64,000 nucleotides of DNA from an uncultured Acidobacteriota bacterium. GTDB lineage: Bacteria; Acidobacteriota; Vicinamibacteria; Fen-336. Position numbers: made by a program. The stretch covers positions 256,001 through 320,000 of the forward strand of contig OY970399.1 of the NCBI GenBank assembly GCA_963720545.1, written 5' to 3'. This document shows, in pieces, positions 15,001 to 24,000 of the stretch (position 1 is its first letter; each line of letters starts with the position of its first letter).

Positions 15001-18000
15001 GAGAGGGTGGTCGTCTGGTCGCTGCAGGAAAACACCTTCTACGCGCTCATCTTTCTCGATGCGGGGTTGAGCGAGCCCGTGCCTGTGGACGCGCGGCCGT
15101 CCGATGCGATCGCCCTGGCGCTGCGTGCGAACGCGCCGATCTTCGTTGCCGAAGACGTACTCGCCTCGACCGCCGAAAAGACTTCCGGGCGTTCGGAAAA
15201 CGTCGATCGGTTGCGTCAGTGGCTCGAAGGCTTGCCCGACGAGGACCTCGGCAAATACAAGATGTAGCGGATAAGTCTCACACCGCCACAATTTGTGCTT
15301 GACGGTTCTTCCGCGCATTTCCTATCATCCCGACGTGCCCCACTCCTTGAGCCTGACCTTGGTGTCTTCGTGAGCGCAACCGTCATAGCCATCGCGAACC
15401 AGAAGGGAGGCGTGGGGAAGACGACAACCGCCATCAACCTCGCCGCCGCCCTCGCCCTGCGGGGTTTCCGGACCCTGCTCATCGACCTCGATCCCCAGGC
15501 GAACTCGTCCCTCACTTACCTGGAGTTCGACGCCGCCAACCGCTCGATGTACGAAGTCCTCTCCGAGGGCGCGGGCATCGAGGAGGTCGCCCTGCCAACC
15601 AAGGTGCCGAAGCTGTTCGTGGCCCCGGCGCGCATCGGCCTTGCCAAGCTCGAGGCCAAGCTCGCGGGCGAGATGGACGCGCCGTTCCGCCTCAAGGACA
15701 AGCTCGCGGAAGTGGCCGAGCCCTACGACTACGTCGTCATCGACACTCCGCCGGCGCTCGGCATCATCACCGTCAACGCGCTGGTTGCGGCAACCCACCT
15801 TCTGGTGCCGGTGCAGTCGAGCTATTTCGCGCTCGAGGGCACCGACGACCTGCTGGAAACGGTGGAGCGCGTGCGCTCGCGGCCGAACCCGGAACTGAAG
15901 CTGCTGGGTGCCGTCATCACGCTCCACGACAAGCGCACCACGCTCGCGCGCGACGTGCAGAAGGCGATCGCCGACGTGTTCGGCAACCGCGTCTTCAAGA
16001 CCACCATAACGCGCAGCATCCGCCTCGAGGAGAGCCCTGCGCATCGCGAACCGATCTTCAGTTTTGCGCCGCAGTCGAGCGGCGCGCTTGAGTACTACAA
16101 GCTGTGTGAGGAGGTCATCGAACGTGTCTAGCACTCGTCGCTTCGGTTTGCCCACCGCCGTCCGCATGAGGCACGACGAGCATTTCGTCGACCGTCTCAA
16201 TCGCTCCGCCGGAATCCCGATCGGACGCCTCATCCCGATCGAGGACATCCACCCGAATCCCGAACAGCCGCGCCACGACATCGGCGACCTGTCGGAGCTC
16301 ATTGCCTCGGTGCGCGAGAAGGGCGTGCTCGAGCCGATCCTGGTGCGGCCGCGCGGCAGCGGCTACCAGATCATCGCCGGCGAGCGCCGCTATCGGGCGG
16401 CGCAGGAAGTCGGCCTCGCCGAGATTCCCTGCGTGGTGCGCGACTCCTCGGACGCCGAGTCGCTCGAGATCGCGCTCATCGAGAACCTGCAGCGCAAGGA
16501 CCTGCACGCCTTCGAAGAAGCCGAGGGCCTGCGCGTCCTCGCAGACACCTACGGCTACACGCACGAAGACCTCGCGGAGAAACTGGGACGCAGCCGGTCG
16601 TCAGTCACGGAAACGCTCAACCTCACGCAGATGCCCGATGAAGTGCGCGAGCTGTGCCGCTTCTCGAACATCACGTCGAAGTCGCTCCTGCTGCAGATCG
16701 TGCGCCTTGGCTCGGCCGAGGACATGATCGGCCTCATCAACCAGCTGCAGGAGCAGGGCACGCCCACCTCGCAGGGTGCCAGAAGGCTGCGGCAGGAGCT
16801 GAAGCCGGCGCCGGCATCAGGTGCGACGGCAAAGCCACGCCATTTCGTCTTCCGCTACCAGCCCGAGGAAAAGAACTTCCGTGTGACGCTGCAGTTCCGC
16901 AAGCAGCAGGTGCCACGCGAAGAGCTGATCGATGCCCTGCAGCGCATCATCAAGGAGCTGCGAGAAGCTTAAGTAAAGCTCCAGGAACTCGCTACTAAGT
17001 GGCTATCTTAGCTGGCTTTTTTGAGACTGGAGCGTCGAAACTTGTCCCATGGGATTCGGGTGGCGTGGACGATGTCCCAGAAGCCATTGGTGAGGCCGTA
17101 GCCCGTTTCCACCCCGACCTGGCTGTGGTGGAACCAATGATGGCGCTTGATGTAGCGCCAGTACTTGGAGCGGAAGTCGTAGAAGTGCACCGATTGGTGC
17201 ACCCACTCCTCGCCGATGTAGGCCACCATGAGGCCCGCCAGGAAGGTTGGCGCGGTGGCGACGGGTGCCAGGAAGCTGAGCGCCGCCACCGGCCCCAGGG
17301 CGGGCAGGGTGTCCTTCAGGGTGCCGTTGATGTGGTTGCCGTCCCAGGGCCGGGCATGGTGCTCATAGTGCAGGTGGTCGAAAAGGTCGTGACTCACTTT
17401 TCGCATACCGGCACCCTTCGGAAAACGCCCGTGGAGGATGAAGCGGTGGACCAGGTATTCGACCCAGGTCCAGGCGGCCGCACCAGCCGCGAACCAGGCG
17501 ATGGGCTGCCACCATGCGGACGCGCTGCGAAACGCCAGGAAGAGCACGATCAGCCCGTAACCGAGGTACGTGACGGTTACCGGGTACAACCGGCGGCGCG
17601 CACGGCGAGCTTCACCTTTCCAGTCGATTCCGACCGGAAACTTCGGGGGTGGCAGGCCCAATTCGGATTTGTGATTCGAGCTAGGTCCGTTCACGGCTGT
17701 GATCCAGTATACGTCAACGGGCGGAGTCAAGATTCCCATTTCGCTCATAAAACGATGACAAAACTGCACCCTTTCGCCGCCAACGGGCGGGCTGATAAGA
17801 TGTTGCGGCTCAGGCGGCAGTCGTCGTGCGTGTAGCGAGTTCGGCCGCTTGAGGCCGGACGACCAGGGAGGGTGTATGGACGCGGCCCAAAAGGCAGCGC
17901 AGAAGGAGAACGACACGGACCGCACAACGTTCGCCGACTACGACCACAGCAACTTCTACTACGGCGCGGGGGACGACCCCCTGAACCTGCTCACCCCGTT

Positions 18001-21000: not shown

Positions 21001-24000
21001 GTGTCCTGCCAACCACCGAGCCGAGTTACGTGGTGATGAACCACCAGTCGCAGCTCGACATCTGCACCGCGGCCGAGATGGGCGAGCCGTACACGCCGAT
21101 CTTCGTGCCGCGCGCCCGCTACGCGCGCTTCATCCCGCTCATCTCCAAGACCATCCGCATGATCGGCTGCCCGATCGTCGACCCGCAGCGCGACGTGCGC
21201 GGCGCCTTGCGCGCGATGAAAAAGGCGGCGGTCGAGCTGCGCGGCGCGTTGCTGGTGTTTCCCGAGGGGCACCGCAGCCGCGACGGCGAGGTGCTGCCGT
21301 TTCGCGCCCGCGGCATGGTGTCGCTGCTGCAGACGCGACGCCTGCCGGTTTACGTGATCGCGAACGATGGCCTGTGGCGCGCGCGCCGCTTCGTGGACGT
21401 GCTGTTCCACGGCGCCGCGCTGCACGGCGAGACCGAACTGCTCGGCCCCTTCCTGCCGCCCGAGGACGACGCCGCGCTCGACGCGTTCGTCGCGACGCTG
21501 CGCGAGCAGCTGGTGGCGAGCGTCCTCGCGATGCGCACGCGCCGGCGCGCGGCGTGAAGCTCGGCGACGCGGTCCGCGCGCACGTCACGGACACTGCCGG
21601 CCTCGACCCGGTTGCGGCGCGGCTCGCCGCGCTTTGCGCCGAGAGCGGCGGCGACGCCGTCAGCGCGGTGCTCTTCTACGGCTCGCGCAAGACCGGTGCC
21701 GCGCCCGACCCGTGGAGCGCCTACGACTTCTTCGTGCTCACGAGCGACGACCGGGCCTTCTATCGCGAAATGAAGGCACGCGGCCAGCTGCGCCGCTCGC
21801 CCGGCCTGGTCGCAGCCCTGAACGGCATGCTGCCCCCGAACCAGGTCTCGGTGCGCGACGGCGGCGGCGGCGCGGCACCCTTCGCCAAGTGCTCGGTGAT
21901 CCGGCTCGACACTCTCGAAGAGGAAACCTCCCCGCGACGGCGCGACCATTTCTGCGCCGGGCGCTTGTTCCAGCCCACGACCCTCGCGTTCGCGCGCGAC
22001 GCCACCGCCGCGGCGCGGGTGGCCGAGTGCGCCGTAGCCGCGCACCGCGCCACCTGGGAGTGGGTGCGGCCGTGGCTGCCGCCCGCCTTCGACGCGCGCG
22101 AGTACTGCCTCACGGCGCTGCGGGTGTCGCTCGGCCGCGAGATCCGGCCCGAGCCCTCGGGGCGCGCCGATGCGCTGTTCGCCGCACAGCGCGACTACCT
22201 GGTGCCCGTTTACCAGTCGCTCCTCGAAGAACTCGCAGCGAGCGGCGCTCTGGCGCCGGCGGGTGAGGGCCGGTTCGCGGCGACATCACCGGTTGAGCGC
22301 AGCGAACGCCGCCGGATCGAGGCATACTTTCGCCGGTCGAAGGCCCGCGCCACCACGCGCTGGTTCAAGTACATGTTCACGTTCGACGACTGGCTGGAGT
22401 ACATCGTGAGGAAGGCCGAGCGGCACGGCGGCGAAAAAGTCGAGCTGAGCGCACGCGAGCGGCGCTGGCCGCTCGTGTTCCTGTGGCCGCGTGTCTTCGA
22501 CTATCTGAAGCACAAGGATCGGCGGAAGCGCCCGTGACCGGAAGTCTCGCGGCACTCCTCGCGATCCTGGCAGGGCTGTTCGTCTCGATGGCCGTGTACG
22601 CCGCCGCGGGCCGCAGGCCCGACCCCGACGCCAGCCGCAAGGGCACGCAGTTTTTGCTCGGCGCGGGCAACTTCATCGTCCACTGGTTCATGTGGCTCAT
22701 CATGCCCATCGAGCGCCTGGCGCTCGCACTGGCGCTCGGGCCGACCTTCTTCAACTTCGCCGGCCTCGCCTTTGGCGCGCTTTCCGGTGTGCTGCTTGCG
22801 ACCGGGCGGCTGGAAGCGGGCGGCTGGGCGATCGCCGCCGGCGGCGTCTGCGACATCCTCGACGGCCGCATCGCGCGCGCCCGCAACATCGCCTCGCCGT
22901 TCGGCAAGTTCCTCGACGCCTGCTTCGACCGCTTCGTCGAGAGCTTCGCGTTCCTCGGCCTCGTCTGGTACTACGCCGGCCGGCCGCACGCCGCCTTCGC
23001 GGCCGCGGCCGCCATCTGCGGCTCGCTGCTGGTGAGCTACGCGCAGGCGCGCGGCGAGACGGTGAACGTCTCGGGCTCGGGCGGCCTGATGCAGCGCGGC
23101 GAGCGCCTCGCCCTCACGTGCTTCGCATGCCTCTTCGACCGGCCACTCAGCGCCTGGCTCAGCCAGCCAACAGGCACGGTGCTCTACTGGGTTCTGGTCG
23201 TGATCGCCGCTGGCTCCTTCGCAACCGCCGCGTACCGCACCGCGTGGCTCGCCCGCGAACTGCAGCGGCGGGAATAGCCAGAATGGCAGGGGCAGGCTTG
23301 CTGTTGTCGTTACTGCTCTCCGGGGCAGGCGAGGCTGGCGACGAAACCGCGCGCAAGACGGCTTACGCCGACCGGGCGCTGGCGGCAAGTGCGTACCCGC
23401 AGGCTATCGAAGCGCTCGAATGGCTCGACAAGCGTGCGAAGGGCACGAACGTCGCCGTGCGCCTCAAGCTGGCGAGCGCATACCTTGGCGCCGAAAAGTT
23501 CGAGCGCGCCGACAAGCTGGCAGGCTGGGTGCAGCAGAACGCGACCGACGACCACCTGCGGGCCCAGGCCTGGCTCGTCTCCGGCATGGCCCTCGGCGGC
23601 ACCTTGTCGTCCGAGAAGAGCCGCAGCGCGGCGGAAGCGGCGTTCCGCGCCGCGATCGCGGCCGATCCGGCGTACGGTGCCGCGCACTATCGCCTGGCGC
23701 AGGTGCTGTTCGCTGCGAGCCGGAACGACGACGGCTTGAAGAGCCTGCAGGACGCGGTGGACGTGCTGCCCGCCGGCCACGCGCTCGCCACCGCCTCACA
23801 TCGGGTCCTCGACAAGCCGCGCCTCGCGGGCAGGAACTTGCTGCCGGCGTTCACGGCCACGACTCTCGACGGCGGAACGTTCAGTTCCAGCGCCCTCGAC
23901 GGCAAGGTCGTGGTGCTCGATTTCTGGGCCACCTGGTGCGGGCCATGCGTGAAAGCGCTCCCGACGGTCAAGAGGCTGGCACGCGCCCATGCAGCGGACG

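Follow-up and report, generated by a model that had tools for sequence, protein, structure and literature searches.

A sphingolipid-linked gene cluster with a Tam41-type nucleotidyltransferase in an uncultured Acidobacteriota bacterium and a possible route through CDP-ceramide

The enzymes PlsC, Tam41 and phosphatidylinositol-phosphate (PIP) synthase catalyze consecutive glycerolipid steps, from LPA through PA and CDP-DAG to PIP, and the archaetidylinositol-phosphate (AIPS) and PIP (PIPS) synthases use CDP-archaeol or CDP-DAG; to our knowledge, CDP-activated ceramide has not been demonstrated to date. The most similar gene arrangement is that of Caulobacter, where a triad known genetically, cpgA, cpgB and cpgC, encoding a PF01066 transferase, a ceramide kinase and a Tam41-domain protein, is located beside spt (PMC11324152). 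CpgB is a ceramide kinase (excerpt of PMC12275187) that also phosphorylates DAG (PMC11324152 S1 Text), and deletion of cpgC results in retention of ceramide phosphate and loss of CPG (excerpt of PMC9393093). The CpgC step does not need CpgA (PMC11324152), which in the Caulobacter model uses CDP-glycerate from a soluble nucleotidyltransferase to extend CPG; CpgD resembles IMPCT (excerpt of PMC12275187). An NDP-activated ceramide was already proposed, speculatively, for this system (PMC11324152, Conclusions and S1 Text), and thus the CDP-ceramide idea, raised for the present locus by the genome-wide survey's note, is less novel than was implied. In Bacteroides, a route leading from MIPS through PIPS and a PgpA-like phosphatase to an AUR1-like synthase has been proven, and a CDP-inositol-based alternative cluster has been proposed for Prevotella (excerpt of PMC9246714). 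The Tam41 enzymes known so far act as PA cytidylyltransferases (PDB titles; excerpt of PMC7018664).

The window analyzed here, 64,000 nucleotides of contig OY970399.1, contains six plus-strand genes whose previously stated families (SPT-like, ADC-fold, YegS/DAGK kinase, PlsC, Tam41-like and CDP-alcohol transferase) were confirmed by profile searches, motifs and predicted folds (Table 1). Neighboring genes overlap or are separated by 20 nt or less. The cluster had been said to start at 17008, but this is the 3' end of a minus-strand hydroxylase gene, and the SPT gene begins at 17876. The cluster thus holds the same kinase/Tam41-domain/PF01066 combination as Caulobacter. However, its kinase and transferase gave no tblastn match (E <= 0.01) to the kinase or CDP-alcohol transferase of a Pseudomonas cpg-type cluster, which indicates that the two triads are analogous rather than orthologous and counts against a CDP-ceramide route.

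Table 1. Genes of the cluster and the adjoining divergent gene (positions within the window)
Feature	Position	Strand	Evidence
Fatty acid hydroxylase family gene	17008..17748	-	PF04116 E 2.7e-13; divergent from operon
Serine-palmitoyltransferase-like alpha-oxoamine synthase (putative backbone module)	17876..19174	+	PF00155 E 3.7e-59
ADC-fold protein without Schiff-base lysine	19162..19827	+	PF06314 E 3.3e-4, below cut-off; Foldseek
YegS/DgkB-family lipid kinase (putative head-group module)	19843..20760	+	PF00781 and PF19279; TIGR00147 149 bits, above cut-off
PlsC-type (HX4D) acyltransferase	20781..21557	+	PF01553 E 5.5e-14
Divergent Tam41/CpgC-superfamily nucleotidyltransferase	21554..22537	+	fold and family profile
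CDP-alcohol phosphatidyltransferase, archaetidylinositol-phosphate/PIP-synthase type	22534..23277	+	PF01066 E 3.4e-11

Among 80 loci retrieved by searching with the Tam41-like protein, the genes were colinear with PlsC in 19, colinear without PlsC in 19 and arranged as two divergent triplets in 19; seven had the Tam41-like and transferase genes only, and 16 were contig-limited. The 64 loci with enough flank comprise types A, A', B and C, and in type B (19 loci) PlsC, the Tam41-like gene and the transferase form one operon. The SPT, ADC-like and kinase genes lie beside the Tam41-like and transferase genes in 57 of these 64 loci, in two architectures and two phyla, and this linkage favors a CDP-ceramide route. 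The conservation of synteny reported earlier is therefore real, but it does not extend uniformly to six genes, and Eisenbacteria, listed among the carriers, are absent from the record titles of the fetched loci. Counted singly, the SPT-like gene occurs in 57 of the 80 loci, the ADC-fold gene in 58 (always adjoining SPT), the kinase in 59 and PlsC, inside the cluster, in 48; in five of five genomes checked whose cluster lacks PlsC, an orthologue is located elsewhere. A reductase position is occupied by an SDR in 29 and a Zn-ADH in 17 other loci, and the window's cluster contains neither a reductase nor a phosphatase.

The SPT-like protein matched Sphingobacterium SPT (3a2b, 302.8 bits) best among solved structures, with KBL/BioF-type entries at or below 248 bits. 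It scored 368.9 bits with the NCBIfam SPT (CFB type) model, whose cut-off is 640, and stayed below the cut-offs of all NCBIfam SPT models; bioF gave 357.6 bits. The genome has one other alpha-oxoamine synthase (AOS), 32% identical. The AF2 model of the ADC-fold partner of the SPT-like protein (pLDDT 86.7) retrieved MppR, Sbi00515 and ADC as the top Foldseek matches (E 1e-10, TM 0.53-0.67); no lysine is invariant in a 13-row alignment, in agreement with the reported absence of the catalytic lysine, and many His, Glu and Asp residues are. Support for a predicted complex of the two proteins was weak. The kinase has a GGDGT motif and DgkB as best PDB match (86 bits), and is proposed to act on ceramide or a long-chain base. 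The PlsC-type enzyme carries HQSQLD (HX4D) and FPEGHRS (FPEGxR) motifs, its gene co-varies with the SPT/ADC genes, and it is proposed to be the N-acyltransferase making the ceramide backbone.

The Tam41-like protein, encoded by a single-copy gene, had no match in Pfam or NCBIfam by itself. Its AF2 model (pLDDT 87.1, pTM 0.86) retrieved Tam41 structures as all top five Foldseek matches (6ig2/6ig4/7ecd; E 2.5e-7 to 1.6e-5, TM 0.48-0.60), a 67-row family profile matched Tam41 6ig2 (E 3.9e-11) and 7ecd (E 2.4e-7), and 41 of the 67 relatives matched PF09139. The gene placed in no family is thus a Tam41-type nucleotidyltransferase detectable by sequence as well as by fold; the missing DxD motif is no objection, since Tam41 itself aligns there with a single Asp. 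Plasmids of Pseudomonas and Roseomonas carry Caulobacter-type sphingolipid clusters, and the hypothetical gene that occupies the CpgC position there is a further homologue (29% identity over 303 aa for pPNP1, 32% for Roseomonas). Superfamily membership and this homology, together with the cpgC and CpgB phenotypes in Caulobacter, favor a CDP-ceramide route and support the claimed sphingolipid link of the cluster. Against it, the window's clade does not group with CpgC in a FastTree tree (unrooted, without a Tam41 outgroup), a distant Tam41-like clade adjoins PLD-like genes without SPT, and CpgA is dispensable for the CpgC step.

The transferase has the full signature motif D-x2-DG-x2-AR-x8-G-x3-D-x3-D and scored best with inositol-phosphate transferase models of NCBIfam (AIPS 108.7, PIPS 96.3, BT1523-type 82.3 bits; all below cut-offs); it is the only strong AIPS/PIPS-like member among five PF01066 genes of the genome. 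It adjoins the Tam41-like gene in all 80 loci, the two are naturally fused in P0175 and P0267, and in a 41-genome class sample both occur in the same 14 genomes and neither in the remaining 27. Adjacency, fusions and identical distribution fit a hand-over of a CDP-lipid and favor a CDP-ceramide route, and the transferase is proposed to move a CDP-activated lipid onto inositol phosphate. MIPS, found in this genome as reported, accompanies the cluster in 48 of 50 genomes, which together with the profile scores points the same way; it is not specific, however, as it occurs in 176 of 301 phylum-sample genomes and in nearly all same-class genomes without the cluster.

The explanation we prefer, to which we would give an even chance, is a conserved two-module operon of soil bacteria making a phospho-sphingolipid, in which the product of a backbone module would pass to a head-group module and phospho-ceramide would be converted through CDP-ceramide to inositol-phosphate ceramide. 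The SPT-like, ADC-fold and PlsC-type proteins, with a reductase that lies beside them in other genomes, would condense serine with an acyl thioester and N-acylate the sphingoid base to ceramide or ceramide phosphate. The YegS-type kinase would phosphorylate the C1 hydroxyl; the Tam41-like enzyme, proposed to be a CTP:phospho-ceramide cytidylyltransferase, would transfer CMP from CTP to give CDP-ceramide, the sphingoid counterpart of CDP-diacylglycerol; and the PIP-synthase-like transferase would combine this with myo-inositol-1-phosphate to ceramide-phospho-inositol-phosphate, to be trimmed by a putative phosphatase. Established directly are the gene families and their linkage, the fold, the homology, the fusions and the shared distribution; from these we infer all substrates, including the lipid (ceramide phosphate or phosphatidate), which of kinase and acyltransferase acts first, and that inositol phosphate is the acceptor. 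The order of the genes and natural PlsC::Tam41-like fusions (P0121, P0122, P0128, P0131) favor the sequence long-chain base, base-1-phosphate, N-acylation, and the Caulobacter precedent favors ceramide first. The pathway had been called complete and self-contained; the sphingolipid link and the Tam41-type enzyme stand and a CDP-lipid hand-over fits, but with neither reductase nor phosphatase in the cluster, and no step in the scheme for the ADC-fold protein, completeness is not supported.

As the main alternative, though we regard it as unlikely, the cluster may be a private PIP module, in which PlsC would convert LPA to phosphatidate, the Tam41-like enzyme would make CDP-DAG and the transferase would be an ordinary PIP synthase; an AUR1-like (PAP2_3) synthase would then move phospho-inositol from PI to ceramide, as is the case in Bacteroides and yeast, and the DAG released would be recycled to phosphatidate by the kinase. 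The substrates of characterized Tam41, AIPS and PIPS enzymes and the succession of glycerolipid steps encoded in one operon in the type-B loci and in fusions speak for this module and against CDP-ceramide, as does the AUR1-like gene of this genome (91.9 bits; reported earlier), whose orthologue occurs in 25 of the 33 acidobacterial genomes with the cluster. The similarity of the transferase to the AIPS/PIPS models, the acceptance of DAG by CpgB and the proven Bacteroides route also speak for the module. However, 17 type-B genomes yielded no strong AUR1-like orthologue, with a single weak match at 34%, and an HMM search of five of them gave at most 36.6 bits. The genome also has CdsA, PgsA, PssA and another PlsC homologue and therefore a housekeeping CDP-DAG supply, which would make a second CDP-DAG synthase with private PlsC and kinase redundant; although CdsA could serve the transferase, no transferase orthologue was seen without the Tam41-like gene in the 41 class genomes.

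The type-C genomes, nine Gemmatimonadota, further argue for CDP-ceramide over a private PIP module. They keep the kinase (42-50% identity in eight of nine), the Tam41-like gene, which in the four tested nests within the type-B clade of the FastTree tree, and the transferase. The ADC-like gene is absent from all nine, cluster-type SPT from the five tested, and a PlsC orthologue from all nine (single 30% match), so that PlsC follows the backbone genes and not the cytidylyltransferase. Five of the nine carry a bCerS-like gene, which in the three genomes whose loci were inspected is flanked by a distinct AOS on one side and an epimerase-type reductase on the other; the argument is tempered because all nine are MAGs and four have no bCerS-like match.

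We consider it improbable that the Tam41-like enzyme instead activates a small phospho-alcohol, such as inositol phosphate or phosphoglycerate, for a transferase that puts the head group on ceramide or ceramide phosphate, in the manner proposed for CpgD/CpgA and CDP-glycerate in Caulobacter. The CpgA model, the Prevotella proposal and the lack of established chemistry for CpgC agree with such a soluble route. However, the Tam41 architecture includes a conserved basic/aromatic C-terminal helical region, of the kind through which Tam41 binds the membrane (excerpt of PMC7018664); known soluble phospho-alcohol cytidylyltransferases have other folds, with CpgD resembling IMPCT (excerpt of PMC12275187); the transferase resembles enzymes with a lipid as CDP substrate; and the conserved kinase would be left without an obvious role. 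Equally improbable is that no sphingolipid is made and the alpha-oxoamine synthase condenses an amino acid other than serine or supplies a different amino-ketone lipid, its product being decorated by the other genes, since, although the SPT scores are below cut-offs with bioF almost equal, an ADC-fold partner and PlsC lie outside every described ceramide pathway and this genome has no bCerS-like gene, a true SPT is the best solved relative by 55 bits, the gene at the CpgC position of sphingolipid clusters is a homologue of the Tam41-like gene, and type-C genomes pair the same head-group genes with an AOS/bCerS-like/reductase cluster.

The divergent hydroxylase gene has no homologue in the 80 related genome loci, and metagenome contig L144 carries a copy, 57% identical, upstream of the same cluster. 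The hydroxylase gene possibly encodes an accessory lipid hydroxylase outside the conserved cluster membership. A 'sterol desaturase family' gene is also found in the Roseomonas cpg-type cluster.

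Open reading frame (ORF) listing and family scans confirmed the six-gene plus-strand cluster described in the genome-wide survey's note. The genes overlap or lie no more than 20 nt apart. The last three junctions are a 20-nt gap and two 4-nt overlaps, so the six genes appear to form one operon; a promoter and terminator scan of the operon gave no signal above chance. Position 17008, which the note had given as the left end of the cluster, proved to be the end of a divergent minus-strand hydroxylase gene. This gene and the TPR-redoxin and type I phosphodiesterase genes located downstream of the operon were rejected as conserved cluster members, each being found in 0/80 related loci (tblastn, E ≤ 1e-5).

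Features of the operon, its surroundings and related loci (positions in the window unless a related locus, L, or a genome, G, is named; G000 is the genome of the window)
Feature	Position	Strand	Basis or remark
parA and parB	15295-16972		directly upstream of the operon
Fatty-acid hydroxylase	17008-17748	-	PF04116; divergent from the operon
SPT-like alpha-oxoamine synthase (AOS)	17876-19174	+	ORF listing and family scans
N-terminal extension of the SPT-like protein	17876-18060		residues 20-60
ADC-fold protein	19162-19827	+	ORF listing and family scans
YegS/DgkB-type lipid kinase	19843-20760	+	GGDGT motif intact
PlsC-type acyltransferase	20781-21557	+	HX4D and FPEGxR motifs intact
Tam41-like protein	21554-22537	+	no family match on its own
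CDP-alcohol phosphatidyltransferase	22534-23277	+	D-x2-DG-x2-AR-x8-G-x3-D-x3-D motif complete
Phosphodiesterase paralogue	24488-25807	+	
Phosphodiesterase paralogue	33211-34770	-	
Phosphodiesterase paralogue	34960-36477	-	
Phosphodiesterase paralogue	49622-51142	+	
Distant Tam41-like clade	L128:5908-10794		metagenome contig
Distant Tam41-like clade	L135:5630-10734		metagenome contig
AOS, 373-residue bCerS-like protein, epimerase-type reductase	L108:6253-9638 (G005)		two GT4 glycosyltransferases adjoining
AOS, 373-residue bCerS-like protein, epimerase-type reductase	L075:10001-13368		two GT4 glycosyltransferases adjoining
cpg-type cluster of plasmid pPNP1	L147:1-19936		IncP plasmid
Fifth CDP-alcohol transferase	G000:C1:3028638-3032259		weak AIPS-like score (32 bits)

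When the AlphaFold2 model of the Tam41-like protein (21-row alignment; pLDDT 87.1, pTM 0.86) was compared with the PDB by Foldseek, the top five matches were all Tam41 chains (6ig2, 6ig4 and 7ecd; E 2.5e-7 to 1.6e-5, probability 1.00, TM 0.48-0.60), followed by aminoglycoside nucleotidyltransferases (ANT) with TM ≤ 0.29. The predicted structure is thus that of the nucleotidyltransferase (NTase) plus winged-helix fold of the Tam41/Mmp37 superfamily. In profile searches, PF09139 was matched individually by 41/67 relatives (best 3.4e-12), and a 67-row family profile found Tam41 6ig2 (E 3.9e-11) and the Firmicutes Tam41 7ecd (E 2.4e-7) in the PDB, as the 21-row profile of the close family did not. 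The YGS, D-F, K-Y, G-R and S-Y-x-G-E-x-R (SYxGExR) blocks of the family align with Tam41. The survey's concern that the DxD motif of an NTase is not evident is no objection, since Tam41 itself has a single Asp at that place. With Tam41/TAMM41, the mitochondrial and Firmicutes CDP-diacylglycerol synthase, the protein shares this fold, profile-level homology and a C-terminal helical region, but it is only ~11% identical, has no Pfam or NCBIfam match when scanned alone (PF09139 none even at E 10), and is encoded among sphingolipid genes rather than in a setting of cardiolipin or PG synthesis.

Relatives of the Tam41-like protein numbered 1039 by word index, and 731 representatives were found at E ≤ 1e-3; the protein atlas gave Gemmatimonadota clusters only. 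Among the representatives were four PlsC::Tam41-like fusions (P0121, P0122, P0128, P0131) and two Tam41-like::CDP-alcohol transferase fusions (P0175, P0267), all of them predicted proteins known from protein sequences alone, as are P0132 (1152 aa) and P0134 (756 aa), in which the Tam41-like domain is fused to a cytochrome P450. The P450 fusions hint that in some lineages the same lipid is tailored by oxidation. A distant clade (~31% identical) has a PLD-like (PLDc_2) gene on one side and, on the other, a radical-SAM gene whose product carries an HMPTM-type zinc ribbon; neither SPT nor kinase nor transferase was found near it in 16 loci of at least 3.5 kb, so the Tam41-like family as a whole is not sphingolipid-specific. 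The clade may represent a different, glycerolipid-type use of a bacterial Tam41.

The conservation of the cluster was examined in 80 loci from species-representative genomes, fetched with the 21-row Tam41-like alignment and compared with the window proteins by tblastn (E ≤ 1e-5). According to the record titles, these loci come from Vicinamibacteria and other Acidobacteriota, Gemmatimonadaceae, Gemmatimonadales, Longimicrobiaceae and one Solibacteraceae. The Tam41-like gene and the transferase were found in 80/80 loci each, always adjacent to one another (median gap between matches, 36 nt), the kinase in 59/80, the ADC-like gene in 58/80, SPT in 57/80 and PlsC in 48/80. Nineteen loci each showed the six genes colinear (type A), a colinear arrangement without PlsC (type A'), and kinase-ADC-SPT diverging from PlsC-Tam41-like-transferase (type B); seven had the Tam41-like and transferase genes with no SPT within at least 5 kb (type C), and 16 were cut by contig ends. 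In 5/5 type-A' genomes a PlsC orthologue (44-49% identical) was located elsewhere. Among the accessory neighbors, an SDR gene was found immediately upstream of SPT in 29 loci (best match in the window's own genome 42%, far away), a Zn-dependent alcohol dehydrogenase gene adjoining the kinase in 17 type-B loci, and, in 20 loci, a gene for an AMP-binding enzyme following that for the transferase (own-genome orthologue 78% identical, elsewhere). The metagenome contig L144 carries the order hydroxylase-SDR-SPT-ADC-kinase-PlsC-Tam41-like-transferase.

In an even sample of 301 phylum genomes the Tam41-like gene was found in 3, all of the window's family. In a sample of 41 genomes of the class it was present in 14, namely the window's own, 10/10 other family members and 3/3 of two sister families. 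Transferase orthologues (48-62% identical) were found in exactly the same 14/41, the other 27 having matches of ≤ 34% identity or none; as kin are not independent, this co-distribution is a pattern and not a statistic. In four genomes of the same order (G283, G368, G374 and G384) the cluster-type transferase occurs twice (48-58% identity with that of the window), although the Tam41-like search found only one place in each.

A search of a plasmid collection with the Tam41-like protein (tblastn) yielded 13 records (Roseomonas, 11; Pseudomonas, 2), with 26.5-32.3% identity over 84-90% of the query and E 2e-10 to 4e-12; against the Pseudomonas locus L147 alone, local tblastn gave 29% over 303 residues (E 7e-21). 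On plasmid pPNP1 of Pseudomonas sp. JS425, the matching hypothetical gene stands right after an "acylglycerol kinase family" gene, in a cluster that also encodes a class I/II aminotransferase, a phosphopantetheine-binding protein, an epimerase-family reductase, a fatty acyl-AMP ligase, LptF/LptG, nucleotidyltransferases and a CDP-alcohol transferase. On plasmid p1 of Roseomonas mucosa the order is CDP-alcohol transferase, diacylglycerol-kinase-family gene and matching hypothetical gene, with a PLP aminotransferase, an acyl carrier protein (ACP), LptF/G, a HIT protein, a metallophosphoesterase and a sterol-desaturase-family gene nearby. Both clusters share the composition of the Caulobacter sphingolipid cluster CC_1152-CC_1168, in which, according to PMC11324152, PF01066 is found in CC_1159 (CpgA) and the Tam41 InterPro domain IPR015222 in CC_1161 (CpgC), while CC_1160 (CpgB) is the ceramide kinase. 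By sequence comparison (29-32% identity), the Tam41-like protein is homologous to the product of the gene next after that of the ceramide kinase in the cpg-type clusters of the Pseudomonas and Roseomonas plasmids, and the orthology of the plasmid genes to CpgC is drawn from synteny with the Caulobacter cluster, the genes being compared by position. In Caulobacter, CpgC acts downstream of ceramide phosphate (PMC11324152, PMC9393093, PMC12275187; available sections): Zik et al. (PMC9393093) describe a cpgC deletion that retains ceramide and ceramide phosphate and is without ceramide phosphoglycerate (CPG) and CPG2, and at the time of that paper CpgC had "no conserved domains", its homologues being confined to Caulobacterales and Sphingomonadales. 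A PF09139 search of the window's own genome found no match, and neither did a Caulobacter control, so this search is uninformative on CpgC; the cluster members of 10 distant Tam41-like relatives included no Caulobacter name.

The pPNP1 cluster lies on an IncP plasmid from activated sludge and is of the Caulobacter phospho-sphingolipid type. An IS5 transposase interrupts its bCerS-like gene, which is missing from the listed annotation, and a class 1 integron with sul1 stands a few kb off.

The window's kinase and transferase had no tblastn match (E ≤ 0.01) to the kinase and CDP-alcohol transferase of the Pseudomonas cpg-type cluster; on sequence grounds they share a superfamily, not a subfamily, with their Cpg counterparts. 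The window clade (37 rows, support 100) stood apart from the CpgC clade (5 rows, support 97) in an 86-row FastTree. This tree, unrooted and built without a Tam41 outgroup, does not place the window clade with either the CpgC clade or the PLD-linked clade. The two systems are alike in that cpgA-cpgB-cpgC lie beside spt in Caulobacter (CC_1159-CC_1162), so that a PF01066 transferase, a DAGK-family kinase (CpgB being a proven ceramide kinase) and a Tam41-domain protein adjoin spt in both. They differ in the transferase, which in the window's type of cluster resembles AIPS/PIPS and is invariably the neighbor of the Tam41-like gene or joined to it in a fusion, whereas CpgA is PgsA-like and, in the available sections of PMC11324152, PMC9393093 and PMC12275187, needed for the second phosphoglycerate only. 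They also differ in the absence from the window cluster of ACP, acyl-ACP synthetase, bCerS, CerR, LptFG and CpgD, in place of which it has the ADC-fold protein and the PlsC acyltransferase, and in phylum (Acidobacteriota and Gemmatimonadota, from record titles). We regard the window cluster as a variant of the Cpg-type phospho-sphingolipid system in other phyla, with a PIP-synthase-type transferase welded to the Tam41-like protein and a non-canonical backbone module. Of the survey's proposal of a complete, self-contained phosphosphingolipid pathway, the sphingolipid-linked cluster with its Tam41 relative is supported, but the completeness is not, as the window cluster contains no reductase or phosphatase.

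Nine Gemmatimonadota genomes, seven of type C and two contig-limited, carry the Tam41-like and transferase genes away from any SPT; of the type-C Tam41-like genes, four were in the tree, and these were nested in the type-B clade (FastTree, joint-clade support 100). In five of the nine genomes the best SPT matches were 34-41% identical, versus 56-62% in type B, and in three of the five the AOS gene so matched adjoins genes for an epimerase-family reductase and for a protein of 373 residues that belongs to no Pfam family, glycosyltransferase genes lying close by. At 36% identity (E 1e-65), the 373-residue protein matches the product of an unannotated, IS5-interrupted gene in the Pseudomonas cpg-type cluster, and from this match we infer that it is bCerS-like; it was found in 5/9 of these genomes, 2/17 of type B and 2/11 of type A/A' (one of the latter weak). 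The kinase was matched in 9/9 and was 42-50% identical in eight, the other match being partial at a contig end. No PlsC orthologue (one 30% match) and no ADC-like gene were found in these nine genomes, all of which are metagenome-assembled, so that absence means "not found". The kinase therefore tracks the Tam41-like and transferase genes, and PlsC and the ADC-like gene track the cluster-type SPT; the backbone genes were replaced by a canonical-looking ceramide set in at least some of these genomes. In type C the Tam41-like and transferase pair is followed by a paralogous 3-beta-HSD/epimerase-type reductase, ~40% identical to the reductase of the ceramide set over the N-terminal ~105 residues that the short loci covered, and by a conserved 215-residue protein of no family.

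The best PDB match of the SPT-like protein was SPT 3a2b (302.8 bits, versus 248 for the best non-SPT entry), and its scores against the NCBIfam SPT models (368.9, 333.5 and 266.9 bits) were below their cut-offs (640, 500 and 670), as was that against bioF (357.6 versus 426). Only one other AOS, 32% identical, is present in the genome. In the SPT-like proteins of the window clade, the aminotransferase domain is preceded by an N-terminal extension that is strongly conserved, with Y22, D23, F27, Y29, D33, D34, P41 and W45 invariant, and that might be a docking site for the ADC-fold partner.

The ADC-fold protein is the best-conserved member of the cluster (73-95% identity among the best 120 relatives, 51% across phyla), and its predicted structure (pLDDT 86.7) clearly has the ADC-family fold by Foldseek; its family profile had no match among PDB sequences. 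Catalysis in the acetoacetate decarboxylase family depends on a lysine, in agreement with the Schiff-base complexes in the titles of the ADC-family Foldseek matches. An alignment of ADC-like proteins (13 rows, 51-81% identity) contained no invariant Lys anywhere; His, Glu, Asp, Arg and Tyr are invariant at many positions, which suggests that the protein is an enzyme and not a passive partner. A predicted complex of the SPT-like and ADC-like proteins had a median score of 0.46 (best of three controls, 0.00), with runs agreeing in at least 37% of contacts and a partner pLDDT of at least 89, and weakly supports complex formation. This mark was reached by 116/157 solved complexes and 2/215 mismatched pairs, and at ≤ 0.60 by only 18/157 solved complexes plus both passing mismatches, counts that hold roughly, as own alignments were used. 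The literature search found no publication joining acetoacetate decarboxylase and serine palmitoyltransferase in a gene cluster. Compared with the canonical Spt-bCerS-CerR pathway, the first enzyme is alike and type-C relatives have an AOS/bCerS-like/epimerase-type reductase cluster, but here the PlsC-type acyltransferase and the ADC-fold protein stand where bCerS and CerR would be. In the window's genome, no match was found to the bCerS-like protein of L108, a swap locus (E < 1e-8), and the best reductase matches were 29-30% identical.

The transferase signature D-x2-DG-x2-AR-x8-G-x3-D-x3-D was matched by regular expression as DILDGRIARARNIASPFGKFLDACFD. Against NCBIfam the transferase scored 108.7 bits for AIPS (cut-off 180), 96.3 for PIPS (170) and 82.3 for the BT1523-type model (350), all below cut-off, and among the five PF01066 genes of the genome (PgsA, PgsA/ClsA-like, PssA, a weak unknown and the cluster transferase) it alone scored strongly against inositol-phosphate transferase models. 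The source of inositol-1-phosphate would be the single gene for myo-inositol-1-P synthase (MIPS), which stands alone (PF07994, 343.9 bits; PF01658, 113 bits). MIPS was found in 48/50 cluster genomes, yet also in 176/301 genomes of the phylum sample, a tally that takes in G029 and G054 (two genomes flagged unpublished) and includes nearly all genomes of the same class without the cluster; with this background its co-occurrence does not discriminate and was rejected as support for an inositol head group. The SDR encoded with the cluster in other genomes has its best match in this genome (42%) about 2 kb from the fifth CDP-alcohol transferase.

Taken together, these analyses point to a CDP-ceramide-type route, the substrates of which are all assigned from gene content and precedent, and we judge its chances to be about even. 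Several points argue for a sphingoid substrate for the head-group module (kinase, Tam41-like protein and transferase): the linkage to SPT exists, CpgB and CpgC offer a precedent, a further CDP-DAG supply would be redundant, PlsC is lost with the backbone genes and not with the Tam41-like and transferase genes, and the type-B genomes lack an AUR1-like orthologue.

Alternatively, the head-group genes might act on glycerolipids as a private PI route, which we consider unlikely. PlsC, the Tam41-like protein and the transferase correspond exactly to the consecutive steps LPA, PA, CDP-DAG and PIP, stand in one operon in type B and occur as fusions; phosphatidate is the substrate of characterised Tam41 enzymes, and the distant clade beside PLD-like and radical-SAM genes has no SPT. 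The genome also encodes an AUR1-like PAP2_3 protein, next to a sugar ABC transporter, and Bacteroides provably employs PIPS and an AUR1-like enzyme, adding the head group to ceramide through PI, with no kinase or Tam41-like gene in the available account (PMC9246714). The window's genome resembles that of B. thetaiotaomicron (BT_1522-BT_1526) in having MIPS, a PIP-synthase-type transferase and the AUR1-like gene; it differs in that the transferase is welded to the Tam41-like gene, with the kinase, beside SPT, and that MIPS and PAP2_3 are unlinked. A second supply of CDP-DAG would, however, be redundant (the genome has one CdsA, one further weak PlsC homologue and two further DAGK-family matches), and the window's PAP2_3 protein was strongly matched in 25/33 type-A/A' genomes but in 0/17 of type B, where there was one weak match of 34%; the PAP2_3 family HMM scored ≤ 36.6 bits in five type-B genomes versus 91.9 in the window's own. 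A soluble CDP-alcohol donor and a non-sphingolipid product are both very improbable readings.

For the CDP-ceramide-type route, two orders of steps can be proposed. In the first, a long-chain base would be converted to its 1-phosphate, an analogue of lysophosphatidate, and then N-acylated by PlsC to ceramide-1-phosphate, which fits the gene order SPT-ADC-kinase-PlsC-Tam41-like-transferase and the PlsC::Tam41-like fusions. In the second, ceramide would be made first and then phosphorylated, which fits the Caulobacter precedent and the type-C genomes, where the kinase is kept and ceramide presumably comes from a bCerS-type route. Either order would require a kinase tolerating more than one lipid, comparable to CpgB, which phosphorylates ceramide and DAG (PMC11324152). 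A full sphingoid copy of the Kennedy pathway, with an ADC-fold SPT partner, is possible but doubtful: the kinase would make sphinganine-1-phosphate as a structural mimic of lysophosphatidate, the PlsC-type HX4D acyltransferase would N-acylate it to ceramide-1-phosphate, the Tam41-type enzyme would make CDP-ceramide, a liponucleotide not known to have been observed, and the PIP-synthase-type enzyme would attach inositol phosphate. If this were true, PlsC would form ceramide without being related to bCerS or eukaryotic CerS, the lysine-less ADC-fold enzyme would be an obligatory new SPT partner, and CpgC would by homology be a ceramide-phosphate cytidylyltransferase, settling the open CPG step.

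The CDP-ceramide idea, the boldest reading of the survey's note, is already in print as speculation for Caulobacter, where an NDP-ceramide between ceramide phosphate and CPG via CpgC is so far a guess; the literature search found no publication on CDP-ceramide, CMP-ceramide, CDP-dihydroceramide or a ceramide cytidylyltransferase, and no lipid data for sphingolipids of Vicinamibacteria or Gemmatimonas. The operon is widespread in uncultured soil Acidobacteriota and Gemmatimonadota and places a CpgC/Tam41 relative immediately before, or in some lineages fused to, a CDP-alcohol transferase, so that two or three recombinant proteins would be enough for a direct test of the hypothesis. The operon further points toward a non-homologous route to the ceramide backbone, in which bCerS and CerR would give way to a PlsC-type acyltransferase and an ADC-fold protein and which, if real, would widen the marker-gene set for predicting sphingolipid producers in metagenomes.

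Other features of the locus were also recorded. Four paralogous type I phosphodiesterase/nucleotide pyrophosphatase genes (26-29% mutual identity) lie inside 27 kb, the first of them 1.2 kb past the operon, and none is kept beside the cluster in the 80 related loci. Over window positions 17000-24000, G+C is 0.62-0.65 across the hydroxylase, SPT and ADC-like genes and 0.70-0.72 from the kinase to the transferase, a step that falls at the boundary between the two proposed functional modules. Besides the partition genes parA and parB upstream of the operon, a ParB gene is found upstream of the cluster in the related locus L017, its ORF having homologues in 29 loci (BLAST of locus ORFs from four reference loci), which suggests that the site beside partition genes is kept in part of the lineage.
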